A stretch of DNA of 64,000 nucleotides, from positions 256,875 through 320,874 of the forward strand of contig CAWJAS010000001.1 of NCBI GenBank assembly GCA_963840935.1. The letters are read 5' to 3'. Made by a program: the position numbers and the translations under genes. Shown piece after piece: positions 2,243-27,200 of the stretch. Source of the stretch: Candidatus Magasanikiibacteriota bacterium (GTDB taxonomy: Bacteria > Patescibacteriota > Patescibacteriia > Magasanikbacterales > GWA2-37-8). The notes under the pieces were generated by a model. It did no database searches. It saw only the letters and a program-made list of their open reading frames with translations, and was not told where the DNA came from. Within the stretch, counting starts at the first letter, position 1, and the number at the start of each line of letters is the position of its first letter.

Positions 2243-2245
2243 TTT

Positions 2246-4120
2246 ATGATAAGAACGCGACTACAATTAATAATATTATTCGCAGTCATTACTGGCGGTT
2301 TGTTGTTCGCGATTTCCGCCAAATCTGCTTCATATTGGGTGACAAATCCTTCAACTTGTCCTTCAAGTGACCCGGTATTTTTTCCGGGTCAGAATTGCGT
2401 GCCGGATAATATTTGCGGAGACAGTTCCGGTATCGCCCAATGTTATTCAACTGCGGGTATCAGCGCGCCGTCCGCTTCAACCACTTCAAATGTTCAATAC
2501 AGCGCTTCGCATCCGAGTGGCGGGTATTTGTTAAATTGTTATGCCACCCAAGATGCGTCAGCTCCTTTTTGCGATAACAATGGGGCCATGTGGTGCAACC
2601 GCAACGAAACATGCTACGGCACAAATCACAAAGTAACCGAATGTACCGGCGGAGTTTTTGGTTCGGCTCTTTGCGGAGCGGACTGCGTTTCCGGTTATCA
2701 GGATTGCGACGCCACTCCGACTGTTTGCGAAGTGCAAACAGGTGTGACAAGTTGTTCCGCGGGAGCGAATAATAATATTGGCGCTTCATGCACCTGCCAG
2801 TGCGATAGTGGTTATGTGGATTGTGACGGTTCTACTCCCGGCGCGGGAACCGGTTGTGAAACCACAATCGGCGGTTCATGTTCCCTCGGTGGTTTGAACG
2901 GAGTGTGGAACGCTTCCTGCGTTTGCGTTGTTTCACCCCAAAATTTTGTTACCGGCGTTGAAGCGCAGTTTGCCACCGCGAGCCCGTTTCTTTGGGGCAC
3001 GCAATATGGAGGAGGGGATTTGATAAATATTTCACAAAATGATTTAACAACTTCCACTTTTCTTGTTTCCAATTCCGGCCAAGTCGGCATCGGTCTCACC
3101 TCGGTTCATGCCGCCGCCGCTCTTGAAGTTTCTTCCACAAGCAGAGGTGTTCTTTTCACGCGACTAACCACCGTCCAAAGAGACGGCATCGCGACACCTC
3201 CTGAAGGTCTTTTGATTTATAATATAGATAATAATCAATTTGAATATTATGCCACTTCAAGCTGGATGGCTATGGGTGCCGGTGGTTCGATTACATATTC
3301 GGCCGATGGAGAAGGTTTGGAGCTCACCGGCAATCAATTTTCCATTGAACTTGACGGAAACACACTTTTCAAATCCGCTTCCGGATTGCGTTTGGCGACC
3401 ACAACTGTAATGGCGGGCACATATGGCTCGTCAACTGAAATGGTCGTTTTCACGGTTGATGCCTACGGCCGTTTAACCGCGGTCACGACCACCACTCTTT
3501 CATTTTCTTCCGCCGATTTAATGGATTCTTCAACCATTGCTTATCTCAATCAAGACCAAACATTCACCGGCCAAAATACTTTTGCCAATACCACAACATT
3601 TAATTCGTCTACTGTTTTTAATAATCAAGTTTTTGTTAATACCACCACGGCTACAAGTTCGCTTAATCTCAAAGTGGCCGGCAAAATCGGAGCCAATTAT
3701 TATTGCGATGCAAATGGAGAAAATTGTTTTGACCCGTCAGCCGGTTTGGTGACATTGGTTAGCGATGTTACTTCCACGCCGATAAGCACTTTCAGCGGAA
3801 GCTTTTCTACGGGCACATTAAAAGGCTATCAAGCGGCGAACGATATTTGTAATTATTATTTCCCCGACTATCATCTTTGTTTTAGCGGTGAAATAATAAC
3901 TTTTATTCGAACTCATTCGATTGCCAAGTTTGCCGGTTTACCCCAAAGTTGGATTGCCGAAGGTCCGCCCGGTTACACCGCATATTCCAATGATTGTGGT
4001 GGCTACACAACAACATCAATGACATATTTGGGCGCGCTTTGGGCATATGACAGCGACGGCGGAGGCCAAGGTTGGCTTACCGGATGCAATAACACTCGCG
4101 CCATAAGCTGTTGCAAATAA
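2246..4120 (+). CDS. Secreted Cys-rich fibre-family protein of 624 aa
   Basis: Signal peptide, then a Cys-rich region and a conserved module (RGVLFTRLTTVQRD...LLIYNIDNNQFEYY) that also occurs in the 4127 gene. A phage-tail-fibre-like motif (GTYGSSTEMVVFTVDAYGRLT) is present. The C-terminal Cys-rich domain is shared with the 1205 gene. Starts 4 nt after the upstream gene, so operon-like. Confidence 0.65.
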   Translation: MIRTRLQLIILFAVITGGLLFAISAKSASYWVTNPSTCPSSDPVFFPGQNCVPDNICGDSSGIAQCYSTAGISAPSASTTSNVQYSASHPSGGYLLNCYATQDASAPFCDNNGAMWCNRNETCYGTNHKVTECTGGVFGSALCGADCVSGYQDCDATPTVCEVQTGVTSCSAGANNNIGASCTCQCDSGYVDCDGSTPGAGTGCETTIGGSCSLGGLNGVWNASCVCVVSPQNFVTGVEAQFATASPFLWGTQYGGGDLINISQNDLTTSTFLVSNSGQVGIGLTSVHAAAALEVSSTSRGVLFTRLTTVQRDGIATPPEGLLIYNIDNNQFEYYATSSWMAMGAGGSITYSADGEGLELTGNQFSIELDGNTLFKSASGLRLATTTVMAGTYGSSTEMVVFTVDAYGRLTAVTTTTLSFSSADLMDSSTIAYLNQDQTFTGQNTFANTTTFNSSTVFNNQVFVNTTTATSSLNLKVAGKIGANYYCDANGENCFDPSAGLVTLVSDVTSTPISTFSGSFSTGTLKGYQAANDICNYYFPDYHLCFSGEIITFIRTHSIAKFAGLPQSWIAEGPPGYTAYSNDCGGYTTTSMTYLGALWAYDSDGGGQGWLTGCNNTRAISCCK

Positions 4121-4126
4121 AATATT

Positions 4127-7100
4127 ATGGAAAAATTTGAAAAACAATTTAAAATTCGTGCGAGCATAAAATCAATGATGATTTTTGTGTTTGTATTTGG
4201 AATTTTTGTTGTTTTTGCAAATTCGGCAAGCGCCACAAATTGGAAGCCAAATCCAAATCAATGTCCGACCACATACAACGGTCAAATTGGTAATCCGGGC
4301 GAAGTGATGTGCGGTTTGAACAGTGGAGTGGCGCATTGGTATGACATGACGACTTTAGTTGGTTTGGTACCCGCGGGTAATACAACCGTTAACACTGGTG
4401 GGGGAACATACGGTGGTTATGTGGTTGATTGCGATGCTTTTGATGCGAGCGTTCCGCGTTGCGACAACACGGGTTCTTTTTGGTGCAGTCCGGACGCTAC
4501 TTGCAACAGTGCCTACAGAAAAACAGAATGTATTGGAACAAAATGGGCTACTGATTCCGGATCTTCTAATTGCGATGTTTGTCAAGATAATAGATGGGAT
4601 TGCGACACTAATAATACTTGCGAAACCGCGGATGGGGCCAGTTGCACGGCGACTCTTGGCGGTAATAATGTTCCCGGCACAATGAATTGCGTTACCGGCG
4701 CCGGTTCATGCTCTGATTTGGGAGCTACTCTTGCCACTTGTACTTGCGTACCGGGTGTTCAATATTTTCAAACGGGCATCCAAGCCCAGTTCGCCACAAC
4801 TTCGCCTTTGCTTTGGGGCACTCAATATGGTACCGGTGATTTAATAAATATTTCCAGCAATGATTTATCAACCACCACATTCATGGTTTCTAATTCCGGC
4901 CAAGTGGGTGTCGGTTTGGCTTCTGCAATAAACACCAATGTTGCTTTTGAAGTTTCGTCCACCAATCGAGGCGTGCTTTTGCCAAGATTAACAACCACGC
5001 AGAGAAACGCGATTTTAACTCCACCGGAAAGTTTGCTTGTATATAATATTGACAATCATCAATTTGAATATTATGCCACTTCAAGCTGGCTTGCCATGGG
5101 CTCGGGAGGTGGTTCGTTTACCGAAACCGACCCGATCTGGATGACGGCAAGTGGCACTTTGACTACCGCGCATTTTGCCACCAATACTGTTTCACAATGG
5201 TCTAATGACGCCGGTTATCTTACTTCATACACCACCACTTCACCCGCCGGCATAAATGGGCAAGTGCAATTTAATGATAATGGCGCATTTGGCGCGACTA
5301 ATACTCTTGTTTGGGATAACTTACTCGGTTCCTTGTCTGTGGGTGATAATTATACTTTTCTATCAGGTTCAAGGTCTTTTGTGCAGGGCCTTTATAGTCA
5401 GGCTACCGGCACAAATTCAATTGCCATGGGGCAATACGCGCAAGCAACAAATAATTTTGCCGTAGCTATCGGCGGTTCTTCTCCGGTATCATCCGGTAAT
5501 TCTTCCATTGCTATGGGTTCTGGCGCGCACGCGTATGGTAATAGTTCAATCGCGCTCGGCAATCTTGCATCAGCGGAAAATTTATCTTCCGTCGCCATTG
5601 GTTATCAAACCAGGTCAACCGGTAATTATGCGGTCGCTATCGGTGGAAATACTAGAGCGACCGGTTTGTTCAGCGTGGCGATTGGCAATAACAGTACCTC
5701 AAGCGGAAATTCATCTTTTGTCGGCGGTTATAATAATGATTCAAGCGGTAATTATTCAGCAGTATTTGGTTCTGACAACATTAACACGGGCGGAGATTAC
5801 GCTTTTATATCCGGCGACAATAATGTAAATTCAGGTGGCCTGTATTCCGCGATTTTCGGGGCCTACAACACATCAACCGGCCAATATTCATTTATCGGCG
5901 CCGGTTTAAATAGTGTGGCGAGCGGAATTAATTCAGTTGCTTTTGGTCGAAATTTGACAGTGTCCGGTAATTATTCTTTTGGGGTTAATGCCCACGGTTC
6001 AAATTCATATACCTTATCTCAAGCTAACACAGTTGCTCTTATGGGTGGCAATGTTGGCGTGGGGACTACGACTCCGGCCTATAGGTTAACCGTTTCCGGA
6101 GATTTCGCCGTTACTGGCACAATAAGAGTGGGGAATGCTATGACCCCGGGCACTTATGGCCAACTTCTAATGTCAACCGGCACGGGAGCGGTTTGGATGA
6201 GTACCAGTTCACTTGGTTTGGGCGGGGGAGGCGTCACAGGTTCCGGCACATCAACTGAAGTCGCTTTTTGGTCCGGCACAAATTCACTTTCATCCTCAAG
6301 TTCACTTTATTGGAATAACACGAATGGCAGACTTGGTATTAACAATGCAACTCCGGAATTCGCTTTAACTATTGGAAATGACGGGGGTATTATCGCAACC
6401 GGCACAGTTGGGTCCGGCGCGACTCTTTCTACCGCTGGCGCCGGCACCCGCATGATTTGGTACCCGCGTAAAGCCGCATTCAGAGCCGGTTATGTAAATG
6501 GAACGCAGTGGAATGACGCGAACATCGGAGAATATTCCGTAGCCATGGGGAACGGTTCAAGAGCCAGCGGATATGGTGACATTGCTATTGGTACTGGTGT
6601 AGTCGCAAGCGGTGGAAATTCCGCCACGGCAATAGGCGCTCTTAATACGGCAAGCGGTGATGGGGCGTTTGCCCTTGGCCGTTCAATGACAGTATCCGGC
6701 GACTATTCTTTTGGTGTTAATGTTTCCACAACCGGTGCCACATTATCCCAAGCGAGTACCATTGCTTTAATGGGTGGCAATGTTGGTGTTGGCACAACTT
6801 CTCCATTATTCAAATTAACAATTGACGGTGGAATTTATTCCACGGGTACTTTTAATGCGGGTGAAACTTTGTCTTATTCCGGTGCTGGTACCCGCATGAT
6901 TTGGTACCCACGTAAAGCCGCGTTTAGAGCGGGTAATGTAGATAGCACACAATGGAATGATGCGAATATCGGGACTTATTCCGTTGCTTTTGGAGAAGAC
7001 ACCGAAGCGAGCGGTGACCACGGGTCAACCGCCTTCGGAACCGGTTCAATTGCGAGCGGTGATTATGGGTCCGCCGCTTTTGGCTCGTGGACAGAAGCTT

Positions 7101-10100: not shown

Positions 10101-12919
10101 CAAATTCAAATAATACAGCTTTGGGTTATCAAGCATTATATGGGAGTAGAAGCGGTGCGCGCAATGTTGGTGTTGGTGTCCAATCGTTATATTCTTTGAC
10201 ATCGGGCAGTGACAACACTGCTCTTGGGTATAACGCTTTATATGGAATTACAAGTGGCTCATACAATGTTGGAGTCGGACCTTATTCTCTTTCAAGTATT
10301 TCCGGTACAACTATTACCAATAATACGGCAATAGGACAGCATGTTATGCGCGATGCGGTTGGCACAACCATGTATTATAATGTGGCAATTGGCTATGAAG
10401 CATTAAGATATTTATCAGTTTCCACGGCAACAGATAATGTGGCTATCGGCAGAGGCTCGATGAGTAATGCCTCCGGCACCCCAACAATAAATTACAATAT
10501 TGCTATCGGTCGAGAATCATTATTGAATACGGAAACTAGCGATAGTGTTGCTATTGGTGCATATGCTTTGCGTTATAATACTACAGGTGATGGCAATGTC
10601 GCGATTGGTTATGAAGCTTTGGAATTGAACGACACAGGCTCATATAATACAGCACTTGGTTATCGCGCTTTGGCTACTAATGATATCGCCATTGGTGGTA
10701 GTAATGTGGCTGTGGGTTATTCTGCGCTTGAAGACAGCTCAAACGGAGTGAACAATACTGCCTTGGGGTCAAGTGCGTTGTCAAATTTAACTTCGGGCAG
10801 TTACAATGTAGCCATTGGTAGCCAGTCTGGAAATGATGTGATATTTAGCACCGAGAATGGCAATACATTGATTGGCTACGCGACAGATATTCTTAATGGC
10901 GTCGAATATTCGACAGCTTTAGGCTATAGTGCAGTTGCAAGTACAAGTAATTCAATTTATTTGGGTCAATTAGGTAATGGTAATGGCAGGGTATTTTTTC
11001 CGGGAATATATGGCAGTGTGCCTGCAGCGACAAATTATGTTTGTATAAATCCAACAACCCGAGAAGTTGCCTATCAATCAACTGCCTGTGGTAGCTCCGA
11101 TGATAATTTAAAAATAAATGAAGAGAGTATCGCAGACGAGATTGATGTTTTAAATGCAGTCAAACAATTACGTGGCGTATTTTTTAATTGGGATTTATCT
11201 AATCCGGAAATGATGGGTGCGCCGTCAGATCGGCAGATTGGCGTAATAGCGCAAGAAGTTTTACCAATTTTACCAGAAGTAGTTGAATATAGCGAAGATT
11301 GGGGCTACTATTCGGTTGACTATCCCAAACTCACTGCTTTCCTCATCGAAGTCGCCAAAGCCCAGCAGAATATCCTCGACCCCATCACCGAGTCCATATT
11401 CATTAACACCACCACTCTAAACATGGCCTTTGGCTCATCTTCCACCCCATACAACCTGACCACCTATGGCAATCTGTCCTTCATATTACCTTCAGACTCC
11501 ACCTCAACTCACAAAATATCTTTTTCCAACACCGTTGATTTTGAATCTTCCGTCTCATCCACCCCCGACTCCCGCGCTTTCATCTTTAACGCTCTTAACT
11601 TTGATACCACATCAACCGACAAATACATATTATCTCTCCGTTCCAACAACAATCCGGTCTTTAGCGTCTCATCAAACGGCGATGTTCATTCCTCCGGCAA
11701 CATGTATGCCGCTTCCGCCGTCCTCGGCACATCCACCAACCCGGGTGACCTGGCAGAAAAAGTAGATATAAACCCCACGGAAACCGTGGAAGCAGGGGAT
11801 GTGATGATGGTTGACCCGGCCTCACCCGACAGATACCAAAAATCAAATCAAGCATACGAACCGACTGTGGCCGGCGTTATCTCCACGAACCCAACCATCA
11901 TTGTCGGCAACGGCAAAACCGACCAAACCGCTCCTCTTGCCATGGTTGGAAGGGTACCGGTCAAATTCAGTGAAGAAAACGGCGCAATACAAAGAGGCGA
12001 CCTCCTTGTATCGGCGAGCACTCCTGGCTATGCCATGAAATATGACCCGATTCTCGACAACTCCAGAAAAGTGGTCGGCATTATCGGTATTGCTCTTGAT
12101 AATTCCATGGAATCAACCAATGGTAAGATAATGACCCTTATCAGAACCGGTTGGGTCTACAACAAAACCCAAGCTGTCTCCAATCTTGAACAACAAGTTT
12201 ACTATGTCGCTTCAAGTGCCGGTGTTGACCTATCGGTTGACCCTGAACTCATGAATATTGAAACTACGAGCGAAGGATCTATCACCTACAACAGTGATAG
12301 CAACCTTAGTCTCAACAATTTCTCCATCACCAATGTCAAATCAATAATATCAACCAACAACAAATGGACCATAGATGAATACGGCCTCTTAATCACCAAA
12401 GTCATCACCGCTGAAGGAACTGAAAAGAATATCTACGGCATGACTTCTGAATCGGCGGAGATTACGCTGTCCGGCTCCGCCGAACTCATAAACGGTGAAG
12501 CAATAATTAACTTTGCCACCGATACACAGTGGTTGATTGATGAGACGCAAGAAATAAAAGTTATCCCAGCCTTAACTTCCGGTGATTGCAATGGAATATT
12601 TGTCAGCGAAAAATCATCTGCCGGCTTCACAATAAAGGAATTAAATAGTGGAACAAGTGCATCAACATTTGATTGGCTTGTGATTGCAAAAAGAAAAATA
12701 AATATTCAGGATGAAATAATTTATGAACCCACACCAACTCCGCCTATTGATGATACACCAACTACAACACCTTTGGTTGATTCTCCCACCACCACACCTC
12801 CAATTGATACATCTATCTCAACTCCACCAACAAGTACTCCATCCATAGACCCACCGACAACCACGCCTTCTGTAGAAGCCTCGTCTTCGCCAGATGAAAC
12901 AGCTATGGATGAATCATAA
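4127..12919 (+). CDS. Giant secreted fibre/adhesin-like protein of 2930 aa
   Basis: Uninterrupted 8.8-kb ORF. It contains a signal peptide, a Cys-rich cap, the RGVLLPRLTTTQRNA...EYY module, Hep_Hag/YadA-head-like repeats, large internal repeats carrying GAGTRMIWYPRKAAFRAG, an S74-type chaperone domain, a shared C-terminal module and a Pro/Thr-rich tail. Confidence 0.8.
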   Translation: MEKFEKQFKIRASIKSMMIFVFVFGIFVVFANSASATNWKPNPNQCPTTYNGQIGNPGEVMCGLNSGVAHWYDMTTLVGLVPAGNTTVNTGGGTYGGYVVDCDAFDASVPRCDNTGSFWCSPDATCNSAYRKTECIGTKWATDSGSSNCDVCQDNRWDCDTNNTCETADGASCTATLGGNNVPGTMNCVTGAGSCSDLGATLATCTCVPGVQYFQTGIQAQFATTSPLLWGTQYGTGDLINISSNDLSTTTFMVSNSGQVGVGLASAINTNVAFEVSSTNRGVLLPRLTTTQRNAILTPPESLLVYNIDNHQFEYYATSSWLAMGSGGGSFTETDPIWMTASGTLTTAHFATNTVSQWSNDAGYLTSYTTTSPAGINGQVQFNDNGAFGATNTLVWDNLLGSLSVGDNYTFLSGSRSFVQGLYSQATGTNSIAMGQYAQATNNFAVAIGGSSPVSSGNSSIAMGSGAHAYGNSSIALGNLASAENLSSVAIGYQTRSTGNYAVAIGGNTRATGLFSVAIGNNSTSSGNSSFVGGYNNDSSGNYSAVFGSDNINTGGDYAFISGDNNVNSGGLYSAIFGAYNTSTGQYSFIGAGLNSVASGINSVAFGRNLTVSGNYSFGVNAHGSNSYTLSQANTVALMGGNVGVGTTTPAYRLTVSGDFAVTGTIRVGNAMTPGTYGQLLMSTGTGAVWMSTSSLGLGGGGVTGSGTSTEVAFWSGTNSLSSSSSLYWNNTNGRLGINNATPEFALTIGNDGGIIATGTVGSGATLSTAGAGTRMIWYPRKAAFRAGYVNGTQWNDANIGEYSVAMGNGSRASGYGDIAIGTGVVASGGNSATAIGALNTASGDGAFALGRSMTVSGDYSFGVNVSTTGATLSQASTIALMGGNVGVGTTSPLFKLTIDGGIYSTGTFNAGETLSYSGAGTRMIWYPRKAAFRAGNVDSTQWNDANIGTYSVAFGEDTEASGDHGSTAFGTGSIASGDYGSAAFGSWTEASGQSSAAFNIATIASGNYSTAFGNTTVASGMTATAFGNGTTASGYISTVFGNSMTVSGDYSFGVNVGASASPVLSQANTIALMGGNVGIGTTSPQYRLTVAGDLAVTGTIRVGDTMASGTYGQILMSTGTGATWMSTSSLGLGAGTVTGSGTSTEIAFWSGTNSLSSSSSLYWNNTTGKLGINNSNPEFALTIGNDGGIIATGTYGSGTILTTAGAGTRMIWYPYGAAFRAGIIDGTQWNEFNIGHGSVAFGANTIASGAGSMAVGADTVASNASSFASGYGAVASGYVGSSIGLYTTSSGHYGSFSIGERTVASGNRAFAGGYYSIASGTATLAFGQNANALGNNSVALGQNVTTTLSSSNNFALGNNIIVSGNYSFGVNVSSTVATLAQANTIALMGGNVGIGTTSPPLKLTIDATVGSGGSEGIGIFGGNSTTVALGNYNSGGTYTGVLALYRSDYWGPTAMFSAGGSASLYGFHIGTSTIPSTISRFTVGSDLEFAISSDGDITRINDVPMSWPSSQGGVGTILQNDGSGNLSWEATSSLGLIDGEGSAGFVTLWNSSTTLSYDGDGMYWDGMDNRLGIGTTTPLGRLHMRTNISGDGIFLSNDVGKVASKLFLILDSDSYQSGKLSLLQNDVEKVSLVAKGNSYLTGGNVGIGTSTPETVLSVAVPGNNGIVLYGSTNGYQLAALASGAGNETGGLVLFTNNISQPSVSITGGVGGAITYFGTSTYRFGIATSSPLSGFTFVVAGTSSQRSILPETNLTYTLGDSSKRWNELWTGTANIGTSTWSLTTTGADRFGIFSGPSGTATETISILQDLGNVGINNISPSKTLDVNGSINIPSTDTTTDSGIIYMNSSRFIHSVGGTTNFYAGLGSANTNAISDYNTGIGGNALMNITSGDGANVAVGYNAGRSITTGAYNVGIGINNFYENGGGIIGNVAIGRHTMYSTQSNSSTAVGYAAMRNNTTGEGNVALGYYGLYANSTGNYNTAVGFEALATTTNSNNTALGYQALYGSRSGARNVGVGVQSLYSLTSGSDNTALGYNALYGITSGSYNVGVGPYSLSSISGTTITNNTAIGQHVMRDAVGTTMYYNVAIGYEALRYLSVSTATDNVAIGRGSMSNASGTPTINYNIAIGRESLLNTETSDSVAIGAYALRYNTTGDGNVAIGYEALELNDTGSYNTALGYRALATNDIAIGGSNVAVGYSALEDSSNGVNNTALGSSALSNLTSGSYNVAIGSQSGNDVIFSTENGNTLIGYATDILNGVEYSTALGYSAVASTSNSIYLGQLGNGNGRVFFPGIYGSVPAATNYVCINPTTREVAYQSTACGSSDDNLKINEESIADEIDVLNAVKQLRGVFFNWDLSNPEMMGAPSDRQIGVIAQEVLPILPEVVEYSEDWGYYSVDYPKLTAFLIEVAKAQQNILDPITESIFINTTTLNMAFGSSSTPYNLTTYGNLSFILPSDSTSTHKISFSNTVDFESSVSSTPDSRAFIFNALNFDTTSTDKYILSLRSNNNPVFSVSSNGDVHSSGNMYAASAVLGTSTNPGDLAEKVDINPTETVEAGDVMMVDPASPDRYQKSNQAYEPTVAGVISTNPTIIVGNGKTDQTAPLAMVGRVPVKFSEENGAIQRGDLLVSASTPGYAMKYDPILDNSRKVVGIIGIALDNSMESTNGKIMTLIRTGWVYNKTQAVSNLEQQVYYVASSAGVDLSVDPELMNIETTSEGSITYNSDSNLSLNNFSITNVKSIISTNNKWTIDEYGLLITKVITAEGTEKNIYGMTSESAEITLSGSAELINGEAIINFATDTQWLIDETQEIKVIPALTSGDCNGIFVSEKSSAGFTIKELNSGTSASTFDWLVIAKRKINIQDEIIYEPTPTPPIDDTPTTTPLVDSPTTTPPIDTSISTPPTSTPSIDPPTTTPSVEASSSPDETAMDES
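5400..5975 (+). other. Hep_Hag / YadA-head-like repeat region inside giant gene 1
   Basis: Repeated ..SIAMG..A.A.G..SVAIG..S.A.G.. units (e.g. NSSIALGNLASAENLSSVAIGYQTRSTGNYAVAIGGNTRATGLFSVAIG). Confidence 0.55.
5965..6555 (+). repeat. Copy 1 of a ~590-bp internal segmental repeat of giant gene 1
   Basis: The peptide YSFGVN...ALMGGNVGVGTT...GDFAVTGTIRVG...GAGTRMIWYPRKAAFRAG recurs at 7272-7860 with high identity. A shorter version lies at about 6700-6990. Confidence 0.6.
7272..7860 (+). repeat. Copy 2 of the ~590-bp internal segmental repeat of giant gene 1
   Basis: See copy 1. The peptide here is YSFGVNVGASASPVLSQANTIALMGGNVGIGTTSPQYRLTVAGDLAVTGTIRVG...GAGTRMIWYPYGAAFRAG. Confidence 0.6.
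11093..11380 (+). other. S74-type intramolecular-chaperone autoproteolysis domain, internal to giant gene 1
   Basis: The peptide SSDDNLKINEESIADEIDVLNAVKQLRGVFFNWDL...RQIGVIAQEVLPILPEVV...YYSVDYPKLTAFLIEVAKAQQ matches the SD(K/N)RLK...GLIAQEV..V.PE.V...Y..L..L.EA.K signature of the tail-spike/endosialidase C-terminal chaperone domain (Peptidase_S74). Confidence 0.6.
11546..12475 (+). repeat. About 930-bp block nearly identical to 25875-26795 in giant gene 2
   Basis: Direct nucleotide comparison shows only scattered mismatches across this block, whereas the flanking regions of the two genes are divergent. Confidence 0.75.
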
Positions 12920-13121: not shown

Positions 13122-13637
13122 ATGTCGTTCAAGTCGATTGTTTTCTGTGTGGTGTTCACGCTCGCCATTCTTGGATGCCAGTCGAGCGCCAACTTTGAGG
13201 CGGGAGACGGAGATGATGGTTTCGAGTCGTACGTCTTCAACGCCCTGTACTTCGATATCGAGAATTCGCTGGTTTGGGAACTGGTTCCGTCGCACGAAAG
13301 CAGTTACAGCACTGCCATTTGGGCGGAAGCAGAGAAACACTGCGAGGATCTTCGGGTCGTAGGGGAGGAGGGCATTTACGAAGATTGGCGCCTTCCCACC
13401 ATCGATGAACTGCGCACACTCGTGGTCGGTTGCGACGAACCTTCGTGTCTGATCGAGGCTGGTACCGGTCCGAACGGCTGCTATTGGCCGGATGCTTTTT
13501 CCGGCGTTTGTGCCCGTTATTGGTCGTTGAGTCGGTGCGGTGAAGATAGCCGGTCGGCAGTCACATTTTCTTTTGCCAGAACGGATTGTTGGCCAGAAGA
13601 TCAGCCGGCAATCGTCCGCTGCGTCCGCGACCTCTAA
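13122..13637 (+). CDS. Short lipoprotein (171 aa) with a DUF1566/Lcl-C-terminal-like (C-type-lectin-like) domain
   Basis: Signal peptide with a lipobox (LAILGCQS). Motifs WRLPTIDELRTL, GCYWP and YWS are present, and the protein ends RCVRDL. The gene is GC-rich relative to its flanks. Confidence 0.75.
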   Translation: MSFKSIVFCVVFTLAILGCQSSANFEAGDGDDGFESYVFNALYFDIENSLVWELVPSHESSYSTAIWAEAEKHCEDLRVVGEEGIYEDWRLPTIDELRTLVVGCDEPSCLIEAGTGPNGCYWPDAFSGVCARYWSLSRCGEDSRSAVTFSFARTDCWPEDQPAIVRCVRDL

Positions 13638-13929: not shown

Positions 13930-15354
13930 ATGAAAAAAATAATGATAGTTCCGGTGATTCTTTTTGCAACTATTTTTTTTACCGCATGCGGTAAAAGCGC
14001 CCCGGTTCGCATCACTGATACCGATACCGAAGACGATGATTCAATCATCATTTCCGGCGCAATGCAGAAGGGTCCTTTTCTTACGGGAAGCACGCTCGCC
14101 ATTTCAATGCTTGATTCTGACGGAGAAGCAATCGGGCTTGATTATCAAACCGTTTCCGAGGATGATTTCGGCGCTTTTAGCACGACTGTTCAATCTGACG
14201 GCCCAAGTGAGTTTGCCTGTAGCGGAGTATACTTCAATGAAGTGGCCGACCGCTTGTCAGATTCGCATTCGCCTATAACCTTGCGAGCAGTTTACGACAT
14301 ATCGGATGAAAGCCAACACGAAGTCATTCTGAATGTGTTTACCCATATGAGCTCGGGCCTTGTTCTAAAAAGAATGGCTGAAGGCGAAACAATTGCGAAC
14401 GCAATAGCATACGCCGAGAACAAGCTTTTTGAAGAGATAGGTATCGTCCATCCGCTTGGTTCCTTGCAGGGCAATGGCACAAGCATGGATTTGGCCGGGC
14501 TGAATTCACCGGACAATCAATACATTGTTGCTTTGTCTTGTGTTGTCGCGAAGACCGCAGAACTCATGGCAGGTGATTCGTCCGAAGTGGATGAGCATCT
14601 CCGAGAGATGATTAATGATATTCGTTCCCAATTGGAAAACGATGAGATTATCTCTTCGGAGTACAAAGAATATCTGCGCGAGGCTGAGTCCGCTCTTAAT
14701 CCGATTGATGGATGCGTCGATAATTTGGCCGACTATATATATTACCAAGCGGGTGAGGTTGTGGAACTTCCCGACCCCGACCAATGTCTTGATAATGATC
14801 ACGACGGCACGGTTAACGCCGAAGATACAGATATTGACGGCGATGGAATTGTCAACGACGATGACGAAGCCCCATACAACATCAATATCGGCGGTGGCAT
14901 GTATTTTGATTACGCCACTAACCTGGCGTGGGAAAATATGCCAAAGAATTACAAAATTCTTTGGTCAGTAGCCAAGAATTATTGTTTGAACCTTGTCGTC
15001 TACGGTTATGATGACTGGCGCATGCCCGCTATTTCTGAGCTTCGAACTCTCGTCAGAGACTGTTCCAACACAGAAACAGGCGGTGAGTGCGCGGTCACCG
15101 ATAGTTGTTCGACCGTTAGTTGTTTTGATGAGATTGACTGCTTCGAGCCGTGTCCACAGGGTTCAGGCCCGGCGGAGCCGAACAACTGCTACTGGCTATC
15201 TGACCTTGGCGGTGAATGTAGCGCCGATATTCAATATTGGTCATATTCAGTCGCCGATGATTATAATGCTTGGATGATTGATTTTGATTACGCTTCAATC
15301 CATCTTGGTGATTACACCTATAACGGGGCTATCCGTTGCGTCCGCGACCTCTAA
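13930..15354 (+). CDS. Long lipoprotein (474 aa): paralogous N-domain, TSP3-like Ca-binding repeats and a DUF1566-like C-terminal domain
   Basis: Lipobox FFTACGKS. The N-domain is paralogous to that of the 28377 gene. DxDxDG repeats are present (DNDHDGTVNAEDTDIDGDGIVNDDDE). The C-terminus carries WRMPAISELRTL ... IRCVRDL. Confidence 0.75.
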   Translation: MKKIMIVPVILFATIFFTACGKSAPVRITDTDTEDDDSIIISGAMQKGPFLTGSTLAISMLDSDGEAIGLDYQTVSEDDFGAFSTTVQSDGPSEFACSGVYFNEVADRLSDSHSPITLRAVYDISDESQHEVILNVFTHMSSGLVLKRMAEGETIANAIAYAENKLFEEIGIVHPLGSLQGNGTSMDLAGLNSPDNQYIVALSCVVAKTAELMAGDSSEVDEHLREMINDIRSQLENDEIISSEYKEYLREAESALNPIDGCVDNLADYIYYQAGEVVELPDPDQCLDNDHDGTVNAEDTDIDGDGIVNDDDEAPYNINIGGGMYFDYATNLAWENMPKNYKILWSVAKNYCLNLVVYGYDDWRMPAISELRTLVRDCSNTETGGECAVTDSCSTVSCFDEIDCFEPCPQGSGPAEPNNCYWLSDLGGECSADIQYWSYSVADDYNAWMIDFDYASIHLGDYTYNGAIRCVRDL

Positions 15355-15553: not shown

Positions 15554-17434
15554 ATGTTTATGTTAAATTGGAAAAAGGCTAAATTCATTGCGCTAGCGAC
15601 CGTATTTTTTGCGTTGCTTTTTTTGGTATCTCCGGCAAAATCCGCTTTTAACCCTCAAATTAATTATCAAGGTAAATTAATGAATGCTGTTGGCCAGCCG
15701 GCTCCGAACGGCGATTATAATTTTAAATTTCAACTTTGTTCAGCCCCCGATAATTGCACCTCTCCGGTTTGGACTGAGACATATGAAAGTTCAAATAAAA
15801 TTACCGTCACTTCAAGTTTGTTCAGCGTGCTATTAGGTTCGCTTGAAGATTTTGACGGCGTTGATTTTAATCAAACTTTGTATTTGGAAGTTCAAGTTGG
15901 AGGAACGAGCACCCCGAGTTACGAGACATTATTACCCCGCAAAAAACTTGGCGCAGTCCCAGTTTCTTTTTACGCCTCCACTTCAACATACTCGAATAAC
16001 TCCGGCCAGCTTCAGGGTCAAACTTGGGCTTCGCCTGGCGCCATCGGAACAGACACCGCCACAACCGCGGTGTTCACAAATGCCACCACAACAAATATAT
16101 TGCGGGTAATCGGCAATTCATATTTCGGTACAGTGGCAAGCGGTACGTGGCAGGGGACGGTAGTAGCAAACACTTACGGTGGCACCGGACAAAATTCATC
16201 CGGCTGGACCGGGTTCGCCTATGTAACATCCGGTATCTGGAGTCCTACAACAAGCATTTCTTTATTTACTAACGACGCTGGATATTTAACCAGCTATACC
16301 GAAACTGACCCGGTTTGGACAACAGCAAGTGGTTCCCTAACTGTCGCTCATTTCGCGACTAATACAGTTTCACAATGGTATAACGACGCTGGCTATATCA
16401 CTTCATCCGCTACTACGTCGCCCGCTGGCAATGACGGCGAAATCCAATTTAATGATTCCGGCGCGTTCGGCGCGACCACAACTTTTGTTTGGGATAATTC
16501 TGCGGGGAGATTAGGTATAAACACAACCACGCCAGCCGGGAAAATTCATGTAGTAACCGGCGCGAGCGCTGAAATTACAATTGGCACCCCGTCAAATGTT
16601 CAGGTTACTCCTAATTACGCGTCAAAAAAATATTATACGGCGAACAGTTATTCACACAACATGCGAGTGTATGCTTTCAAAGACACATCTGCGGGCAGAG
16701 TTTATTCATCATCATATGATGACCTTGCGAGCGATTGGACAGACAATGGTTCAGCTGGTAAATACGACCTTTCCTGGACATGGGACGCTGTATCTGGGGC
16801 CAGTGGTTATCGAATTTTGAAATACGATACTTCGCATCCATATAATTATGATGTGTATAAAGATGTAGCCACGAATTCTTATACCGATGACAATGGTGAC
16901 GCATGGCTTTCTTCGCCGGTTATGACCCCGACTTCATTGTATGAATCCGGCAAGGCCTTAAGATTGGGTTATGACTCTGCAAATTATGTTGATTTTAATA
17001 TTAACAGCGACGCTTCTTTTGGCATGTTCAATAACGCGGGTACCGGCATATTGTATATGGATGAAGACGGAAAAATTGCCGTTGATAGTACTGATCCGTT
17101 GGCGCAATTTTATGTCGGCGGTACCGGGGACATAATTGCCGAGGGTATTTTTGACAATGAGGATAGCTTGGGTGTTTCCGGTGCTGGCACCAGAATGATG
17201 TGGTATCCGGAAAAAGCGGCATTCAGAGCGGGGCGCGTTACAGGAGATGATTGGGATGATGCAAATATTGGTGATTATTCAGCAGTTTTCGGAATGGAAA
17301 ACTTGGCATTAGGTGAAGCGTCTTTTATTGCCGGATCATCAAATGAAGATGCCGGTGCGGGTAATGCAGTATTTGGGACAATGAATACTGCTAATGGATA
17401 TTATTCAATCGTTGCTGGCTTGGAAATAGTATAA
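15554..17434 (+). CDS. N-terminal segment (626 aa) of giant fibre gene 2, ending at an in-frame TAA
   Basis: Signal peptide. The N-module is shared with the 1205 gene, and the DPVWTTASGSLTVAHFATNTVSQW... module is shared with gene 1. The reading frame continues in the same frame immediately after the TAA at 17432. Confidence 0.65.
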   Translation: MFMLNWKKAKFIALATVFFALLFLVSPAKSAFNPQINYQGKLMNAVGQPAPNGDYNFKFQLCSAPDNCTSPVWTETYESSNKITVTSSLFSVLLGSLEDFDGVDFNQTLYLEVQVGGTSTPSYETLLPRKKLGAVPVSFYASTSTYSNNSGQLQGQTWASPGAIGTDTATTAVFTNATTTNILRVIGNSYFGTVASGTWQGTVVANTYGGTGQNSSGWTGFAYVTSGIWSPTTSISLFTNDAGYLTSYTETDPVWTTASGSLTVAHFATNTVSQWYNDAGYITSSATTSPAGNDGEIQFNDSGAFGATTTFVWDNSAGRLGINTTTPAGKIHVVTGASAEITIGTPSNVQVTPNYASKKYYTANSYSHNMRVYAFKDTSAGRVYSSSYDDLASDWTDNGSAGKYDLSWTWDAVSGASGYRILKYDTSHPYNYDVYKDVATNSYTDDNGDAWLSSPVMTPTSLYESGKALRLGYDSANYVDFNINSDASFGMFNNAGTGILYMDEDGKIAVDSTDPLAQFYVGGTGDIIAEGIFDNEDSLGVSGAGTRMMWYPEKAAFRAGRVTGDDWDDANIGDYSAVFGMENLALGEASFIAGSSNEDAGAGNAVFGTMNTANGYYSIVAGLEIV

Positions 17435-18240
17435 ATATTCAGTTTTGGTTCTTATGCCGAATATAATGCGGTTTTTGGCACAAATAATCAATTGTATAAT
17501 ACTGCAAAGTATTCTTAGTTACCGGTGGTTTTAATAATGTCACTTCAACATATTCCAGCGCGTTTGGCCAATCTCATATTATTAAAGGAGATTATTCACA
17601 TCTTTTTGGTTATAGCATTGACAGCCAACAGCGAATTTATTCTTTTGGTGTTAATGTTAGTTCAACGGCAGTAACTATGAACACCCCCAATACCATCGCC
17701 CTTATGGGTGGGAATGTCGGTATTGGCACAACATCGCCGGCATCATTATTAACAATTGGTAGTGGTGGTCAGTTTCAAGTTAATTCGACCGGCAATTTAA
17801 CGAAAATTAACAATGTTCAATACTCATGGCCTTCCGCCAACGGAGCTTCCGGTACGCTATTTACCACCGATGCTTCGGGTAATTTATCTTGGGTTGCCAC
17901 AACTTCTCTTGGATTGGCAACCGGCAATGTCACCGGTTCGGGTTCGACCGGCATGGTTACTTTTTGGACCGACACCAATGTGATATCAGGTTCATCTTCA
18001 TTTATTTGGGATAATACCAATCGCTCTTTGTCGGCTGGCGGAGTCGGAAGCATGTTATTTGTCGGCACGAAAAACTCTTTTGTATTTTCGGATAACAGTA
18101 GTATACAAATTAACCCGGATTCTTTTATTGGCGGTGGTTATTCAAATGTAGTAGTTGCAACATCGTCTTTTGTTGGAGGCGGTTATTATAACGAAATTCG
18201 TGATGGGGGAAACCTTCATCATTTATTGGTGGGGGCATGA
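17432..18240 (+). pseudogene. Disrupted junction region of giant gene 2 with three lesions
   Basis: An in-frame TAA lies at 17432-17434, and the repeat-consistent translation continues after it (IFSFGSYAEYNAVFGTNNQLYNTAKYS). A TAG/frame change occurs near 17515-17521. A +/-1 shift occurs in a G5 run near 18200-18210 (GGYYNEIRDGG / KPSSFIGGGMSNVIAG). Confidence 0.6.
17677..18240 (+). CDS. Internal fragment (187 aa) of giant gene 2
   Basis: Repeat-type sequence (NTIALMGGNVGIGTTSP...) continuous in content with the upstream and downstream segments. Overlaps the next ORF by 4 nt in another frame. Confidence 0.5.
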   Translation: MNTPNTIALMGGNVGIGTTSPASLLTIGSGGQFQVNSTGNLTKINNVQYSWPSANGASGTLFTTDASGNLSWVATTSLGLATGNVTGSGSTGMVTFWTDTNVISGSSSFIWDNTNRSLSAGGVGSMLFVGTKNSFVFSDNSSIQINPDSFIGGGYSNVVVATSSFVGGGYYNEIRDGGNLHHLLVGA

Positions 18241-21200
18241 GCAATGTTATTGCCGGGCAACATTCAGGTGTGGTCGCAGGCACTTATAATATTGTTACTT
18301 CTTCGAATTCATTTATCGGAGGCGGTTCAAATAATCAAATAACAAATTCCGCATCGCGCTCGTTTATCGGTGGCGGTCAATATAATTTCGCGGATGGTTT
18401 AAATTCTTTTATTGGGGGCTACGCCAACACCACCACTGGTAATAATGCGACTGCCTTCGGGTATCAGATGCAAGTTGATGGTAATTACTCTTTTGGCATA
18501 AATGTTTCCTCGACTAATCCGGCCACAATTACAAATAATAATACTATAGCTTTAATGGGTGGGAATGTTGGAGTGGGCACCACAACGCCAGAAACAAAAT
18601 TAACCATTGATTCAACTGTAGGCGCTGGTTTATTTGGTGGAATATCTTTATCTGGCGGGGGTGCTCCAACTGCGATTTTAGGTCATGCCAATATAGTTAG
18701 TAATCATTCGGGTGTTTTAGCATTATATAACAATACCCCAGCCGAATTATTACCACCAGTATTTATTCCCGCATGGACTAAATCGGCAATATTACACGGC
18801 TTGAATATTGGTACGACATCATATTCGGGAACTGGGTTGTTAAATGTCGGTCTTACCCAACAATTCCGGGTTGATAACGATGGTGACATTGCAAGGATTA
18901 AAAATATTTCTTATGATTGGCCAGACTCTCAAGGTGCCGTTGGTACTATCTTACAAAATAACGGGGCAGGAGCATTATATTGGACTGCGACATCATCGCT
19001 CGGTTTTGTTGACACAGACACCACCACATCCCCGGCCGGTTTTGACGGGTATATTCAATTTAATGAAGACGGTGAATTCGCGGCGAGTCAGAATTTATAT
19101 TGGGCCACATCAACTGGACGATTGGGTGTTGGTGACGCATCGATAGCCGGAAGTCCGACCAATAAATTATCAATTGGCGCGACACCCAGCAGTGGTTCCG
19201 CTGACGGTATGTCTATATACGGTGATGACTTATTAACTGCCTTTGTCGGTAATTACAATTCCAGTGGTGTTTATACCGGTCGTATCGGACTTTATCGCGC
19301 CGAAGACGCTGATACTGAATTAAAAACATTCATCAGTGCCAGTGCTTCATATTTTGTCGGCGGTAATGTCGGAATCGGTGTTTCAACGACAATCCCGTCT
19401 TTGTTAACCGTTGGTTCAAATAGCGGTTTCCAAGTCAATTCTTCCGGCAATTTAACAAAAATTAACAATGTCACATATTCCTGGCCAGGATCACAAGGCG
19501 CGGCTAGCACAATTTTACAAAATGACGGTTCGGGCACATTAACTTGGGTCAATACCTCCACCCTCGGTTTCGCCACCTCTTCGCACACCCATGCCACGCT
19601 CTCACAAGGTACCGGTATCGCCGCGTTTTCATACAACGGTTCATCGGCCGCCACTGTCGGTCTGGCCACTTCGGGTGTTACTGCCGGCACTTATGGCACG
19701 GTTTCAGCAGTGCCTATCTTAGTAGTTGATACCTATGGTCGTATTACTTCGGCTTCCACATCATCAATTGCCATTTCTGCCAGTCAAATTACATCCGGGA
19801 TTCTTCCTATCGCTCGTGGTGGCACTAATTCTTCAACTATCGGCGCTGCCGGTTCGGTCCCATATTCCGATGCCACTTCATACCGTTTTACAGCCGTTGG
19901 CACCTCCGGTCAAATTCTACGCTCCAACGGGGCCGGAGCCCCAACTTGGGTTTCCACTTCAACTCTCGGCATTACTGTCACTGAAACCGATCCTGTTTTT
20001 GACGCCTTGCCGGCGGCCAAAGGTGATATATTTACCGCCACGGCCAATGATACACCATCAATTTTGTCTGTCGGTACGAATGGAAAAATATTAACAGCTT
20101 CTTCTTCCGCCACTAACGGCATAGATTGGATGACGACATCTTCTCTCATCGGCACTCTTGGCACCATGGCTTATCAAAATGCTAATAACGTAAATATTTC
20201 GGGGGGAACGATTACCAGTATAGGGGATGTTACAATTAACGAAGGTCAGCTTTATGTGCATGACAATTTATATATTACAGACGGTGATAGCGATACGGTG
20301 TCCGGCATATATTTGGGTGCCACCGAAGTCGGTCAATATTTTATAACCTCAGCCGGTACTGCCGGTCAACTTTGGTCGTCTGACGGAGATGGGCGCGGAA
20401 CATGGGTGGCGACATCTTCACTTGGTATTGCTAGCGCCGGTGGTTGGACTGATGATGGCATGGTAGTGCGATTGACCACCATTATAGACAATGTCGGCAT
20501 CGGCACAACCACACCGGCGGCTAAACTGCATGTAAATATCACAACTGGCGACGGTATCATATTAGGCTCAGGAAGCAGTGGAAGCGCAGTAGCTAAATTG
20601 TTTGCCAATGGTGACTATGGCGATGTTGGTAATATATCGTTGCATTATGGCTCAAGCCAAAAAGCTTTATTATCGGCCGACGGTGTTTCCTATCTTAATG
20701 GCGGGAATGTAGGCATTGGTACCACTTCACCGGCGGCTAAACTGCATGTAAATATCACAACTGGCGACGGTATCATATTAGGCTCAGGAAGCAGTGGAAG
20801 CGCAGTAGCTAAATTGTTTGCCAATGGTGACTATGGCGATGTTGGTAATATATCGTTGCATTATGGCTCAAGCCAAAAAGCTTTATTATCGGCCGACGGT
20901 GTTTCCTATCTTAATGGCGGGAATGTAGGCATTGGTACCACTTCACCGGCGGCTAAACTGCATGTAAATATCACAACTGGCGACGGTATCATATTAGGCT
21001 CAGGAAGCAGTGGAAGCGCAGTAGCTAAATTGTTTGCCAATGGTGACTATGGCGATGTTGGTAATATATCGTTGCATTATGGCTCAAGCCAAAAAGCTTT
21101 ATTATCGGCCGACGGTGTTTCCTATCTTAATGGCGGGAATGTCGGCATTGGTACCACTTCACCGTCATACAGCTTATCTGTTGCTGGTCATATGGCAGTT

Positions 21201-24200: not shown

Positions 24201-27200
24201 GTGACACCAAGTGAACAGTTGGCTGTTTGGGGTGATATGCGTGTCGCGACTACCACAGGAACTGCGCCCGCATTATATGTTGACGTATCGGCCAATGCGA
24301 TTGGTGTTCGAATGATAGCGCCACAAGAAGCTTTGCATGTTGAAGGCAATATTAGAATTCCTGGAACAGGTGCTTCAGACGGATATATTAAAATGGATGC
24401 TAATCGATATATCCATAGTTATGGGGGCACAACAAACTTTTTTGCCGGTGTTAATGCCGGTGGGCTGTCAATGACCGGTGATTACAACACAGGTGTTGGA
24501 GCTAGTTCATTAAATAATATTACATCCGGTCAAAACAATGTAGCTTTGGGTTACTACGCCTCACGAGATTTGCAAACCGGTTCAGATAATGTTGCGGTTG
24601 GAGTAAATGCGCTTTTTAATGCTACGGGTTATAGTGCCAATGTCGCCGTTGGTAAAGATGCTATGGCGGAAACTACTGCGAATTCAAGCACCGCAGTTGG
24701 TTATGAGGCGCTCAGTCGTAATACCAGTGGCGAAGGCTTGGTCGCGGTTGGTTATCAAGCTCTTACAACCAATTCCACAGGTAATTACAATTCGGCTCTT
24801 GGTTATCAAGCGCTTTATTCCAATACAACCGGTTTATATAACACGGCCTTTGGCTCTCAAACTCTTTATGATAATGTTAGCGCCCATGCCAATACCGCTT
24901 TGGGTTGGGGTGCGCTGGCGAACACAACGAACGCATCAAATACTGCGGTTGGTTTTGGAGCTTTAATTACTGATACAACTGGTTATAGTAATACTGCCGT
25001 GGGTTTGTACGCTCTAAGATATGTTTCTTCGGGCAGTTATAACGTTGCTATTGGGCTTGATGCGGGCGATAATTCTGTTTTTAATACCGAAAGTTATAAT
25101 ACTTTGATTGGAGCAAGAGCGGATGTTTCTGCTGATGCCATATCAAATTCAACCGCAATTGGCTATGACGCTGTGGTTGGTTCTAGCAACAGGGTCGTTC
25201 TTGGAAATGGCGATGTTACTTCTGTTTATATGTCCGATGATGGTGGAGCAAGTGTCTACTTCACGCCGGCTAGCACTCTTTATACTACTGCGTTATGTTG
25301 GGATAATTCCGGCCCGTCGAGTATATATGATTGTAACGGTTCGGCGACCGACTACATGGAATACTACGCGGTTGACAACGATGTTGAATCCGGGGATTTG
25401 GTTGTAATCGGAGATACTTATGTTTCAACAACCGAAGGTTTTACAATAGCAAAATTAGAAAAAGCGACAGGCCCATACGACCCGAAATTATTAGGTGTTA
25501 TTTCAATAAAAGAATGGGCTGGCGATTTCAATTCAATCGGTCAAAATAGTATTTACGAATCAGACAATCCGCACGTGCTTGCTCTTTCAGGTCGTATTCC
25601 CGTAAAGGTTACCACAGATAATGGTCCTATTTATAAAGGCGACAAGCTTACTTCATCTGATCGCCCTGGTTATGCCATGAAAGCCACCGAAGACGGTCCG
25701 ACTATTGGTATTGCTTTGGCAGATTTTACAGGTTCGGCCACAGGAACGGTTATGGTATTTATTGATCTTGGGTGGAATAATACAATTTATCGCGGATTAA
25801 CAATAAATGAAAGCGACTCGGAAATAACATTCAAAACACCAACTTTGGCTTTCACAACCACCACATATTTTACCTCTTCCGTCTCATCCACCCCCGACTC
25901 CCGCGCTTTCATCTTTAACGCTCTTAACTTTGATACCACATCAACCGACAAATACATATTATCTCTCCGTTCTAACAACAACCCGGTCTTCTCTGTCTCA
26001 TCAAACGGCGATGTTCATTCCTCCGGCAACATGTACGCCGCTTCGGCTGTCCTCGGTACTTCCACCAACCCGGGTGACTTGGCAGAAAAGGTAGACATAA
26101 ACCCCTCGGAAACCGTGGAAGCAGGGGATGTGATGATGGTTGACCCGGCATCACCCGACAGATACCAAAAATCAAATCAAGCATACGAACCGACTGTGGC
26201 CGGCGTTATCTCCACGAACCCAACCATCATTGTCGGCAACGGCAAAACCGACCAAACCGCTCCTCTTGCCATGGTCGGCAGGGTACCGGTCAAATTCAGT
26301 GAAGAAAATGGCGCAATACAAAGAGGTGACCTCCTTGTTTCCGCGAGTACCCCGGGCTATGCCATGAAATATGACCCGATTCTCGACAACTCCAGAAAAG
26401 TGGTCGGCATCATCGGTATTGCTCTTGATAATTCCATGGAATCAACCAATGGCAAAGTAATGACTCTCATCAGAACCGGTTGGGTCTACAACAAAACCCA
26501 AGCCGTCTCCAACCTTGAACAACAAGTTTACTATGTTGCTTCAAGCGCCGGTGTTGACCTATCGGTTGACCCTGAACTCATGAATATTGAAACTACTAGT
26601 GAAGGCTCTATCACCTACAACAGCGATAGCAACCTTAGTCTCAACAATTTCTCCATCACCAATGTCAAATCAATAATATCAACCAACAATAAATGGACCA
26701 TAGACGAGAACGGCATATTAATTTCTAAAATCATTACCGCTGAAGGCGCTGAAAAGAATATCTATGGCATGACTTCAGAATCTGCAGAGATTACGCTATC
26801 GGGAACCGGAACTTTGCAAATGGGTGAAATATTTATTTCTTTTGCGACCGATACAAAATCAATTATTGATGAATTAGAACCGATTAAAGTGAGTGTCACC
26901 TTAACTTCCATAGACGCAAAAGGAATCGCGGTTATAGAAAAATCCAATGAAGGATTTAAAGTTAAGGAATTGGATAATGGGACATCAAACGCCACATTTG
27001 ATTGGATTGTGATTGCCAAACGGCGTGCAATAATTAACGAATCAAGCAGTGAACCTGAAACTATTGATACTAAATCATCATCCGGTTCGCCGGTTGATGA
27101 GAGTTCTGTTGATGAGGAATTAACTCAAGCAGGAGAGGAAGACGAAACGACGGACTCGTCTTCTTCTCCTGCCGGTGATTCTTTCGAGGAACCGTTGGCT

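Follow-up and report, generated by a model that had tools for sequence, protein, structure and literature searches.

We analyzed a 64,000-nucleotide window of a Candidatus Magasanikiibacteriota genome (assembly GCA_963840935.1, contig CAWJAS010000001.1, positions 256,875 to 320,874), focusing on a giant gene, here called gene 1, whose product of 2930 amino acids (aa) carries an S74-type intramolecular chaperone autoprocessing (ICA) domain. This domain is not C-terminal: 516 residues lie beyond its signature, which ends '...IEVAKAQQ' at aa 2414, and they include a second self-processing chaperone domain that resembles the one in phage phi29 gp12 (hereafter G2-like). We give even chances to the reading that the last 607 residues form a stacked, self-removing trimerization cassette for an exported giant trimeric surface fiber. 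The gene belongs to a Magasanikbacteria-type bacterium of the candidate phyla radiation (CPR), and the parts of the proposed cassette are of phage tail-fiber and tailspike type. Phage tail fibers are the textbook setting for intramolecular chaperones that cleave themselves off, and MYRF is the well-known internal case.

The S74 assignment is supported by family and structural profiles. The Pfam model PF13884 (Peptidase_S74) matched aa 2324 to 2386 with an E value of 7.6e-9 and 36.2 bits, against a curated gathering cutoff of 22, and PHROG tail-fiber profiles matched aa ~2319 to 2414, invariably towards the profile end. Since single-sequence phmmer with aa 2273 to 2930 found no PDB match at E ≤ 1, profiles were required for the comparison with solved structures. 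A three-sequence S74 profile recovered the phage S16 fiber (6f45, 1.4e-6), 8jov (6e-5), and MYRF (7dc3, 3.6e-4), and 'SSDxxLK' of gene 1 aligned on 'SSDRRIK' and 'SASDERLK' of solved S74/ICA domains. The Ser-x4-Lys dyad is intact (S2324 and K2329); its spacing of 5 is also found in MyRF (S587/K592) and endoNF (S911/K916) (PMC8326128), as well as in T5 pb1 (S1264/K1269) (PMC4690869). MyRF is cut between P586 and S587 (PMC8326128), and the predicted scissile bond of gene 1 is therefore the one between Ser2323, whose codon begins at position 11093, and Ser2324. The domain terminates in a predicted 25-residue helix (residues 100 to 124 of an AlphaFold2 [AF2] model). These results bear out a first-pass annotation of this DNA, which had called an internal S74 domain with about 520 residues behind it. 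Its proposed split into pieces of about 2330 and 600 aa also agrees with the arithmetic (~2323 plus 607 aa) for a cut before Ser2324, predicted by analogy with MyRF and T5 pb1. Its single cleavage site gives way to at least two predicted sites, since the second autoprocessing domain (Asp2541-x-x-Glu2544) lies downstream.

Pfam found no family in the module downstream of S74, and the G2-like assignment was made because a PDB profile search, hhalign, Foldseek, and motif invariance point to it. In an alignment of 36 diverse G2-like copies (A1), Asp16 and Glu19 (Asp2541 and Glu2544 in gene 1) form an Asp-x-x-Glu motif, both residues of which are invariant in 36 of 36 sequences, internal copies included. 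The A1 profile matched phi29 gp12 in the PDB (6qz9, 1.3e-3; 3gqh, 2e-3), with the Asp and Glu aligned on 'DFAE'. Residue 1 of 3gqh, the C-terminal fragment left by gp12 cleavage, is the one aligned to the invariant Asp; 3suc, a "pre-mature" crystal form, has Gln at the position aligned to the invariant Glu. The last residue of mature gp12* is 691 (PMC6542822). Taking this together with the alignment to 3gqh, Asp-x-x-Glu sits exactly at the gp12 self-cleavage site, where the motif reads S691, then, after the cut, D692...E695. By hhalign, A1 matched gp12 with a probability of 92.7% and E = 4.3e-7 over the first 77 columns only. An AF2 model of aa 2300 to 2870 reached a predicted local distance difference test (pLDDT) score of 82 to 94 across the domain, and Foldseek placed 3suc at the top of its matches (E = 5.1e-5, probability 1.00), with phage cement proteins that share this fold ranked next. 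PF11962 (Peptidase_G2) was weakly matched by 11 of the 36 A1 members, at best with 7e-5. A profile built from terminal-domain proteins alone still found the gene 1 region, at 1.9e-44. As judged from profiles and the modeled fold, the downstream domain is a distant gp12-type G2-like autochaperone branch and not a member of the Pfam family. Between it and the S74 domain lies a short beta-rich "mini-stalk," which makes up the pre-cleavage stalk of the G2-like domain and is common to proteins with a first G2-like domain in place of S74 (alignment A3).

Behind the G2-like domain, a predicted helix, a possible coiled-coil connector, leads into a constant C-terminal unit named A4 after its alignment. 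The A4 beta-sandwich (aa ~2737 to 2857; pLDDT 92 to 98) ends in the motif 'FDW..IAKRK'. A sequence search of the PDB with A4 found nothing, and its Pfam matches were weak and of the FlgD_ig type. The best Foldseek match of the sandwich was the C-terminal domain of the Pam1 tailspike (7eea, 7.6e-4), and further matches were to the K64-1 depolymerase (S2-4), K1 lyase, an R-pyocin fiber, and the Sf6 tailspike. The Pro/Thr-rich tail anticipated by the first-pass annotation was also present, with 17 Thr, 16 Pro, and 10 Ser among the final 73 residues.

Gene 2, the second giant gene of the window, allows the two chaperone types to be compared within paralogous chains. The first-pass annotation correctly held that gene 2 lacks an S74 domain: none was found by Pfam or by a custom hidden Markov model (HMM) applied to the window in six-frame translation. 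It had missed, however, a G2-like chaperone at the S74-equivalent position. By HMM search, S74 occurs once in the window and the G2-like domain three times, with a single G2-like copy in gene 1 and the other two copies in gene 2. The fibers encoded by both genes are colinear until ~40 aa before the S74 domain or the first G2-like domain, respectively; the S74 domain of gene 1 and the first G2-like domain of gene 2 therefore share one slot. Parallel alternative use is known from homologous appendage proteins, in which GA-1 uses S74 and phi29 uses G2 (PMC4690869). The downstream module of gene 1 aligned with the gene 2 C terminus at 86% identity over 402 aa. Near-identity starts at aa 2475 of gene 1, and 291 of 298 residues (aa 2478 to 2775) are identical. 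The module described in the first-pass annotation as nearly identical between the genes is thus present in both, and in gene 2 it consists of the second G2-like copy with A4. Across its 298 codons we counted 7 amino acid replacements versus 43 silent differences, which indicates strong purifying selection on the module. The same ratio rules out recent gene conversion as the sole cause of the identity. The low-complexity tails of the two genes are wholly different.

Features of gene 1 and gene 2, with positions in the 64,000-nucleotide window
Feature	Position	Strand	Evidence or remark
Gene 1, exported fiber precursor, 2930 aa	4127..12919	+	Open reading frame (ORF) list, translation, Pfam
Gene 1, Peptidase_S74/ICA intramolecular chaperone domain, aa 2324 to ~2423	11096..11395	+	Pfam, PHROG, PDB profile, AF2
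Gene 1, predicted S74 dyad, Ser2324 (11096-11098) to Lys2329 (11111-11113)	11096..11113	+	Motif SSDDNLK
Gene 1, beta-rich mini-stalk between chaperone domains, aa 2424-2540	11396..11746	+	AF2 model (pLDDT 58-77), beta strands
Gene 1, G2-like (phi29 gp12-type) autochaperone domain, aa 2541 to ~2680	11747..12166	+	Profile, hhalign, Foldseek
Gene 1, G2-like motif Asp2541 (11747-11749)-Leu-Ala-Glu2544 (11756-11758)			Predicted scissile bond between Gly2540 and Asp2541
Gene 1, predicted helix, aa 2681-2697, NKTQAVSNLEQQVYYVA	12167..12217	+	AF2 model residues 382-398
Gene 1, constant C-terminal unit A4, aa 2699-2859	12221..12703	+	Alignment A4, AF2, Foldseek
Gene 1, Pro/Thr/Ser-rich low-complexity tail, aa 2858-2930	12698..12916	+	Composition; without hydrophobic anchor
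Gene 2, first G2-like domain, motif Thr2371, predicted cut, Asp2372-Tyr-Met-Glu2375	25350..25796	+	HMM 4e-43; independent profile 1.3e-31
Gene 2, shared module: second G2-like domain (Asp2614-Leu-Ala-Glu), helix, A4 sandwich	26076..27032	+	Alignment, HMM
Gene 2, acidic low-complexity tail after shared module	to 27296	+	

The architecture of gene 1 recurs in other genomes. Homologs of aa 2273 to 2930 are Patescibacteria proteins. In a survey of the module that used one genome per species and scored architectures within 3 kb, we identified 72 loci, chiefly from Candidatus Magasanikbacteria. A single G2-like domain precedes A4 at 36 of these, two G2-like domains at 27, and S74 followed by a G2-like domain at three by HMM and at one more (L009) by motif. 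The A4 unit was found at 67 of the 72. A4 and its low-complexity tail are thus the constant element, and the self-processing domain or domains in front of it are the variable one. The order S74, G2-like, A4 is present in P0127, P0001, P0003, L004, L009, L018, and L044, at 44 to 62% identity, and each of these proteins keeps both S-x4-K and DLAE. P0127 is an intact gene of 3252 aa with the same domain order. On one contig, an S74-type gene (L004) lies next to a non-S74-type gene (L006), as in the window. In P0267, A4 directly follows S74, and the C-terminal helix of S74 runs straight into the equivalent of the gene 1 helix. One Bacteroidota protein has two S74 domains followed by two G2-like domains. 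Many of the module contigs among L007 to L075 are titled "uncultured Gammaproteobacteria bacterium" (third-party annotation metagenome-assembled genomes [MAGs]) and encode Magasanikbacteria-type proteins; these titles are probably placeholder mislabels.

A ~140-residue G2-like core also ends ~460-aa proteins from many phyla, in the form 'D-[LVIY]-A-E ... GD.. ... VAGVIST.P ... LALAGRVPVK ... GD.L..S..PGYAMK'. Of 91 relatives that lack the CPR-type end-piece, 80 have the domain no more than 15 residues from the C terminus, which is where a removable chaperone is canonically found; in gene 1, ~250 residues follow it. One set of such proteins (P0032 to P0120, e.g., P0035 from Caldilineaceae and P0088 from Bipolaricaulota) consists of signal-peptide proteins of ~400 to 600 aa that end in the G2-like domain. 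This family spans multiple phyla, is mostly unannotated, carries 'GGAD[VL]AE...GRVPVK...', and has a precomputed Peptidase_G2 match in P0076 only.

To place the internal S74 domain in a wider context, we searched 1.84 billion cluster representatives exhaustively with HMMER, in place of a word-indexed homolog search that returned 2 matches for the S74 region alone. S74 domains were found in 130,881 proteins. Among the best 150 of these, 70 had at most 30 residues after the last S74 domain, 27 had 31 to 100, 40 had 101 to 250, and 13 had more than 250. More than 100 aa thus follow the last S74 domain in 53 of the best 150, although ranking by whole-protein score favors multidomain proteins and biases this 35% "internal" figure upward. 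Many of the best 150 carry two to four tandem S74 copies. S-x4-K is intact in 129 of 136 internal and 69 of 72 terminal domains. A search of 50,697 phage genomes gave 116 matching records, every one of them over the S74 part only, and the order S74 then G2-like was found in none at tblastn sensitivity. The expectation of the first-pass annotation that S74 always forms the extreme C terminus therefore holds for phages but not for MYRF or for the 53 proteins above. Internal S74 domains are not rare in environmental cellular proteins, whereas the stack of S74 and G2-like domains is uncommon, and we found no description of such a stack in the literature.

Some of the S74 proteins have further features of their own. 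P0126 (5473 aa, on a contig of 47.8 kb) has four S74 domains at a spacing of ~1100 aa, and would be a fiber "polyprotein" if all four were cut. P0126, P0130, P0138, P0144, P0162, and P0208 have two to four S74 domains with S-x4-K intact. By eye, the post-S74 tails of P0249, P0261, P0238, P0194, P0126, and P0138 contain a coiled-coil-like stretch and then a C-terminal sandwich that ends '[FV][DN]W', recalling the end motif of A4; the A4 HMM finds none of them at E ≤ 0.01.

Gene 1 is a single uninterrupted ORF over 8.8 kb, ending with the last base of a TAA stop at 12919, and from M17 onward its product is identical to database protein P0123, which is encoded on a 770,905-bp contig. A predicted N-terminal signal peptide (aa 1 to 36, '...ANSASA' before 'TN') is followed by a Cys-rich N-terminal domain and then by the fiber, a large share of which consists of YadA_head repeats (Pfam, E = 2.6e-33). 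The only hydrophobic 19-mer region on the Kyte-Doolittle scale is aa 10 to 36; downstream of aa 2324 the 19-residue mean peaks at 1.05, so that no transmembrane segment is predicted there. With an N-terminal signal peptide and no further hydrophobic segment, the product is read as exported. The flanks of the window are chromosomal (IF-2, a thioredoxin-like protein, LeuRS, ComEC, and Lcl_C lipoproteins). A phage origin of the window was ruled out by the IF-2, thioredoxin-like, LeuRS, and ComEC genes and by the homologs in Magasanikbacteria MAGs.

Comparison with known systems identified likenesses and differences in each case. With the phage ICA (also CIMCD; MEROPS S74, PF13884) proteins (K1F endosialidase, the T5 L-shaped fiber pb1, and the GA-1 neck appendage), gene 1 shares the sequence family, the Ser-x4-Lys dyad, and a domain that follows a long trimeric beta-structured fiber and closes in a C-terminal helix. 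There, however, the domain is the extreme C terminus of a virion protein and is discarded, whereas gene 1 encodes a predicted Sec-exported cellular protein with 516 more residues and a chaperone of a second family. MYRF and MrfA, membrane-bound transcription factors of eukaryotes, likewise have an internal ICA, and a cut N-terminal to the catalytic Ser would free an N-terminal trimer. The remainder of MYRF has a transmembrane anchor; that of gene 1 has a G2-like chaperone and a tailspike-type sandwich, and a MYRF-like membrane tether was ruled out by the hydropathy profile. Phi29 gp12 (MEROPS G2, PF11962; 3GQH, 3SUC) resembles the second domain in fold, in profile, and in the Asp-x-x-Glu at the cleavage site between 691 and 692, and most G2-like relatives are, like it, C-terminal. 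In contrast, the gene 1 copy is very distant and not terminal. YadA trimeric autotransporters share the head-type repeats, and the gene 1 fiber probably has an adhesive surface role. A trimeric autotransporter identity was ruled out, as no anchor or translocator domain was found by Pfam or NCBIfam, with NCBIfam scores far under the cutoffs; assembly instead appears reliant on phage-type self-cleaving chaperones. We know of no outer membrane in this organism.

The sequences establish which domains are present, that their catalytic motifs are conserved, and that S74 and G2-like domains replace each other in one slot; the mechanism that follows is inferred. On the cassette reading, the gene 1 chain would leave the cell unfolded, into a compartment without chaperones or ATP. 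The C-terminal units would trimerize first and nucleate folding toward the N terminus; the G2-like domain would template the short stalk, and the S74 domain, with its C-terminal helices resting on that trimer, the main fiber. Once each trimer was correct, S74 would cut between Ser2323 and Ser2324 and the G2-like domain between Gly2540 and Asp2541, leaving a mature fiber of aa ~37 to 2323 and releasing the cassette as fragments of ~217 and ~390 residues. Several observations weigh against this scheme. Proteolysis of the gene 1 product is predicted wholly by analogy. The S74 region of the AF2 monomer model is of low confidence, and the gene 1 G2-like copy has no match to PF11962 even at E ≤ 1. 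Both chaperone types are terminal in the characterized phage systems, and neither is terminal in gene 1. Release of the phi29 chaperone, as Xiang and colleagues reportedly found in 2009, is ATP-dependent and so could not operate outside the cell, which makes such release implausible for an extracellular G2-like domain. The terminal sandwich resembles domains that are retained in mature tailspikes and are able to bind receptors, so that discarding it is not the sole sensible reading. That A4 is so constant (67 of 72 loci) hints that it does more than serve as a throw-away cap.

These last points lead to an alternative in which the constant C-terminal unit holds the precursor at its assembly site or envelope until trimerization-dependent S74 cleavage frees the fiber, as in MYRF, or in which the unit survives as a product in its own right, making gene 1 a small polyprotein. 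We consider this unlikely. A4 and its tail stay constant while the chaperone upstream varies (S74, one G2-like domain, two, or S74 with G2-like), the module is under strong purifying selection, and the sandwich resembles lectin-like, receptor-binding, or trimerization domains; proteins such as P0126, with their two to four S74 domains, look polyprotein-like, and MYRF shows that an internal ICA is workable as a release switch (PMC8326128). Against this, Pfam found neither a lipobox nor a sortase signal nor any known wall-binding domain downstream of S74, the region lacks a transmembrane segment, and the low-complexity tails of genes 1 and 2 differ completely. Moreover, the N terminus is more likely to be the cell-proximal end, by analogy with phage fibers and with the small neighbors that share the N-terminal domain.

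It is doubtful, too, that the S74 and G2-like domains are noncleaving trimerization knots kept in the mature fiber, with the downstream trimer perhaps blocking cleavage geometry. Some autochaperone domains do remain uncleaved, for example, the C-terminal domain of the P22 tailspike (PMC4690869, PMC3357383), the terminal sandwich has the look of the end of a mature tailspike, and analogy is what predicts cleavage here. However, Ser and Lys are kept at nearly the same frequency in internal as in terminal S74 domains, and the Asp and Glu of the G2-like domains are invariant throughout A1; it is difficult to see why these residues would be so conserved if they were not catalytic, and the internal MYRF domain does cleave (PMC8326128). 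We also weighed an artifact, in which an assembly chimera, missed stop, or frameshift fused an S74-terminated gene to the downstream module. The neighboring gene 2 is itself broken by one in-frame stop and two frameshifts, so errors or decay do occur in this repeat-rich region. An artifact is nevertheless very improbable for gene 1, given that its ORF is continuous and that the order S74, stalk, G2-like, A4 recurs at least seven times in independent contigs or samples, among them the intact P0127.

The disruption of gene 2 deserves description in its own right. Gene 2 (18237-27299) resembles the 3' part of a larger gene that is disrupted over the stretch 15554-18240. An ORF at 15554-17434 provides the signal peptide and matches the N terminus of the intact homolog P0127 with 60% identity; it is closed by an in-frame TAA, beyond which YadA-type repeats run on. 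Past this stop, the reading moves to the frame of ORF 17677-18240 and changes again just before 18237. These interruptions mark either a pseudogene or errors made in assembling this repeat-rich sequence. An alternative genetic code was ruled out: leuS uses TGA as a stop, and the pieces lie in three frames. Within gene 2, 20490-21164 comprises three near-perfect (97 to 100%) tandem copies with a period of 216 nucleotides (72 aa), and a second repeat pair with 438-nucleotide spacing occupies 21638-22346.

Upstream of gene 1, ORFs 1205-2242 and 2246-4120 have a common Cys-rich C-terminal domain that ends 'CCK' and has no Pfam match. The N terminus of ORF 2246-4120 shares 44% identity with aa 10 to 328 of gene 1 (4127-5110), its Cys-rich N-terminal domain. 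From these sequence similarities, N- and C-terminal units appear to be shuffled among the surface proteins of the 1205-5110 region. Four Lcl_C (DUF1566-type) genes flank the two giant genes (13122-13637, 13930-15354, 27509-28153, and 28377-29849), with N termini of lipoprotein-like or signal-peptide type, and the homologous giant gene in L003 is likewise followed by an Lcl_C gene.

The component parts described here (S74/ICA, gp12-type G2, and MYRF-like internal placement) are known; it is their arrangement that is unusual. With known parts and cleavage that is predicted only, the practical value of the finding is moderate. The widespread, unannotated G2-like branch with the signature 'D-[LVIY]-A-E ... 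GRVPVK' is a marker of C-terminal pro-domains across many phyla, and with its help "hypothetical" surface proteins could be better annotated. A broader proposal, which we put forward as speculative, is that CPR bacteria (Magasanikbacteria) mature giant extracellular fibers by a dual-protease, chaperone-free pathway on a constant C-terminal platform. It is similarly tentative that this platform (G2-like domain, coiled coil, and sandwich) nucleates extracellular trimerization, with interchangeable S74 and G2-like cassettes serving as checkpoints that sever the finished fiber from the platform. If true, this pathway would give bacteria an equivalent of the MYRF release switch, and the multi-S74 proteins would be true fiber polyproteins. 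Confirmation of the cassette reading would mean that giant cellular surface proteins of ultrasmall CPR bacteria use self-cleaving chaperones, and that two unrelated autoprocessing families can be stacked in one chain and swapped between paralogs ahead of a constant sandwich end-piece. Together, these features suggest how trimeric fibers of several thousand residues may fold outside the cell without periplasmic chaperones.

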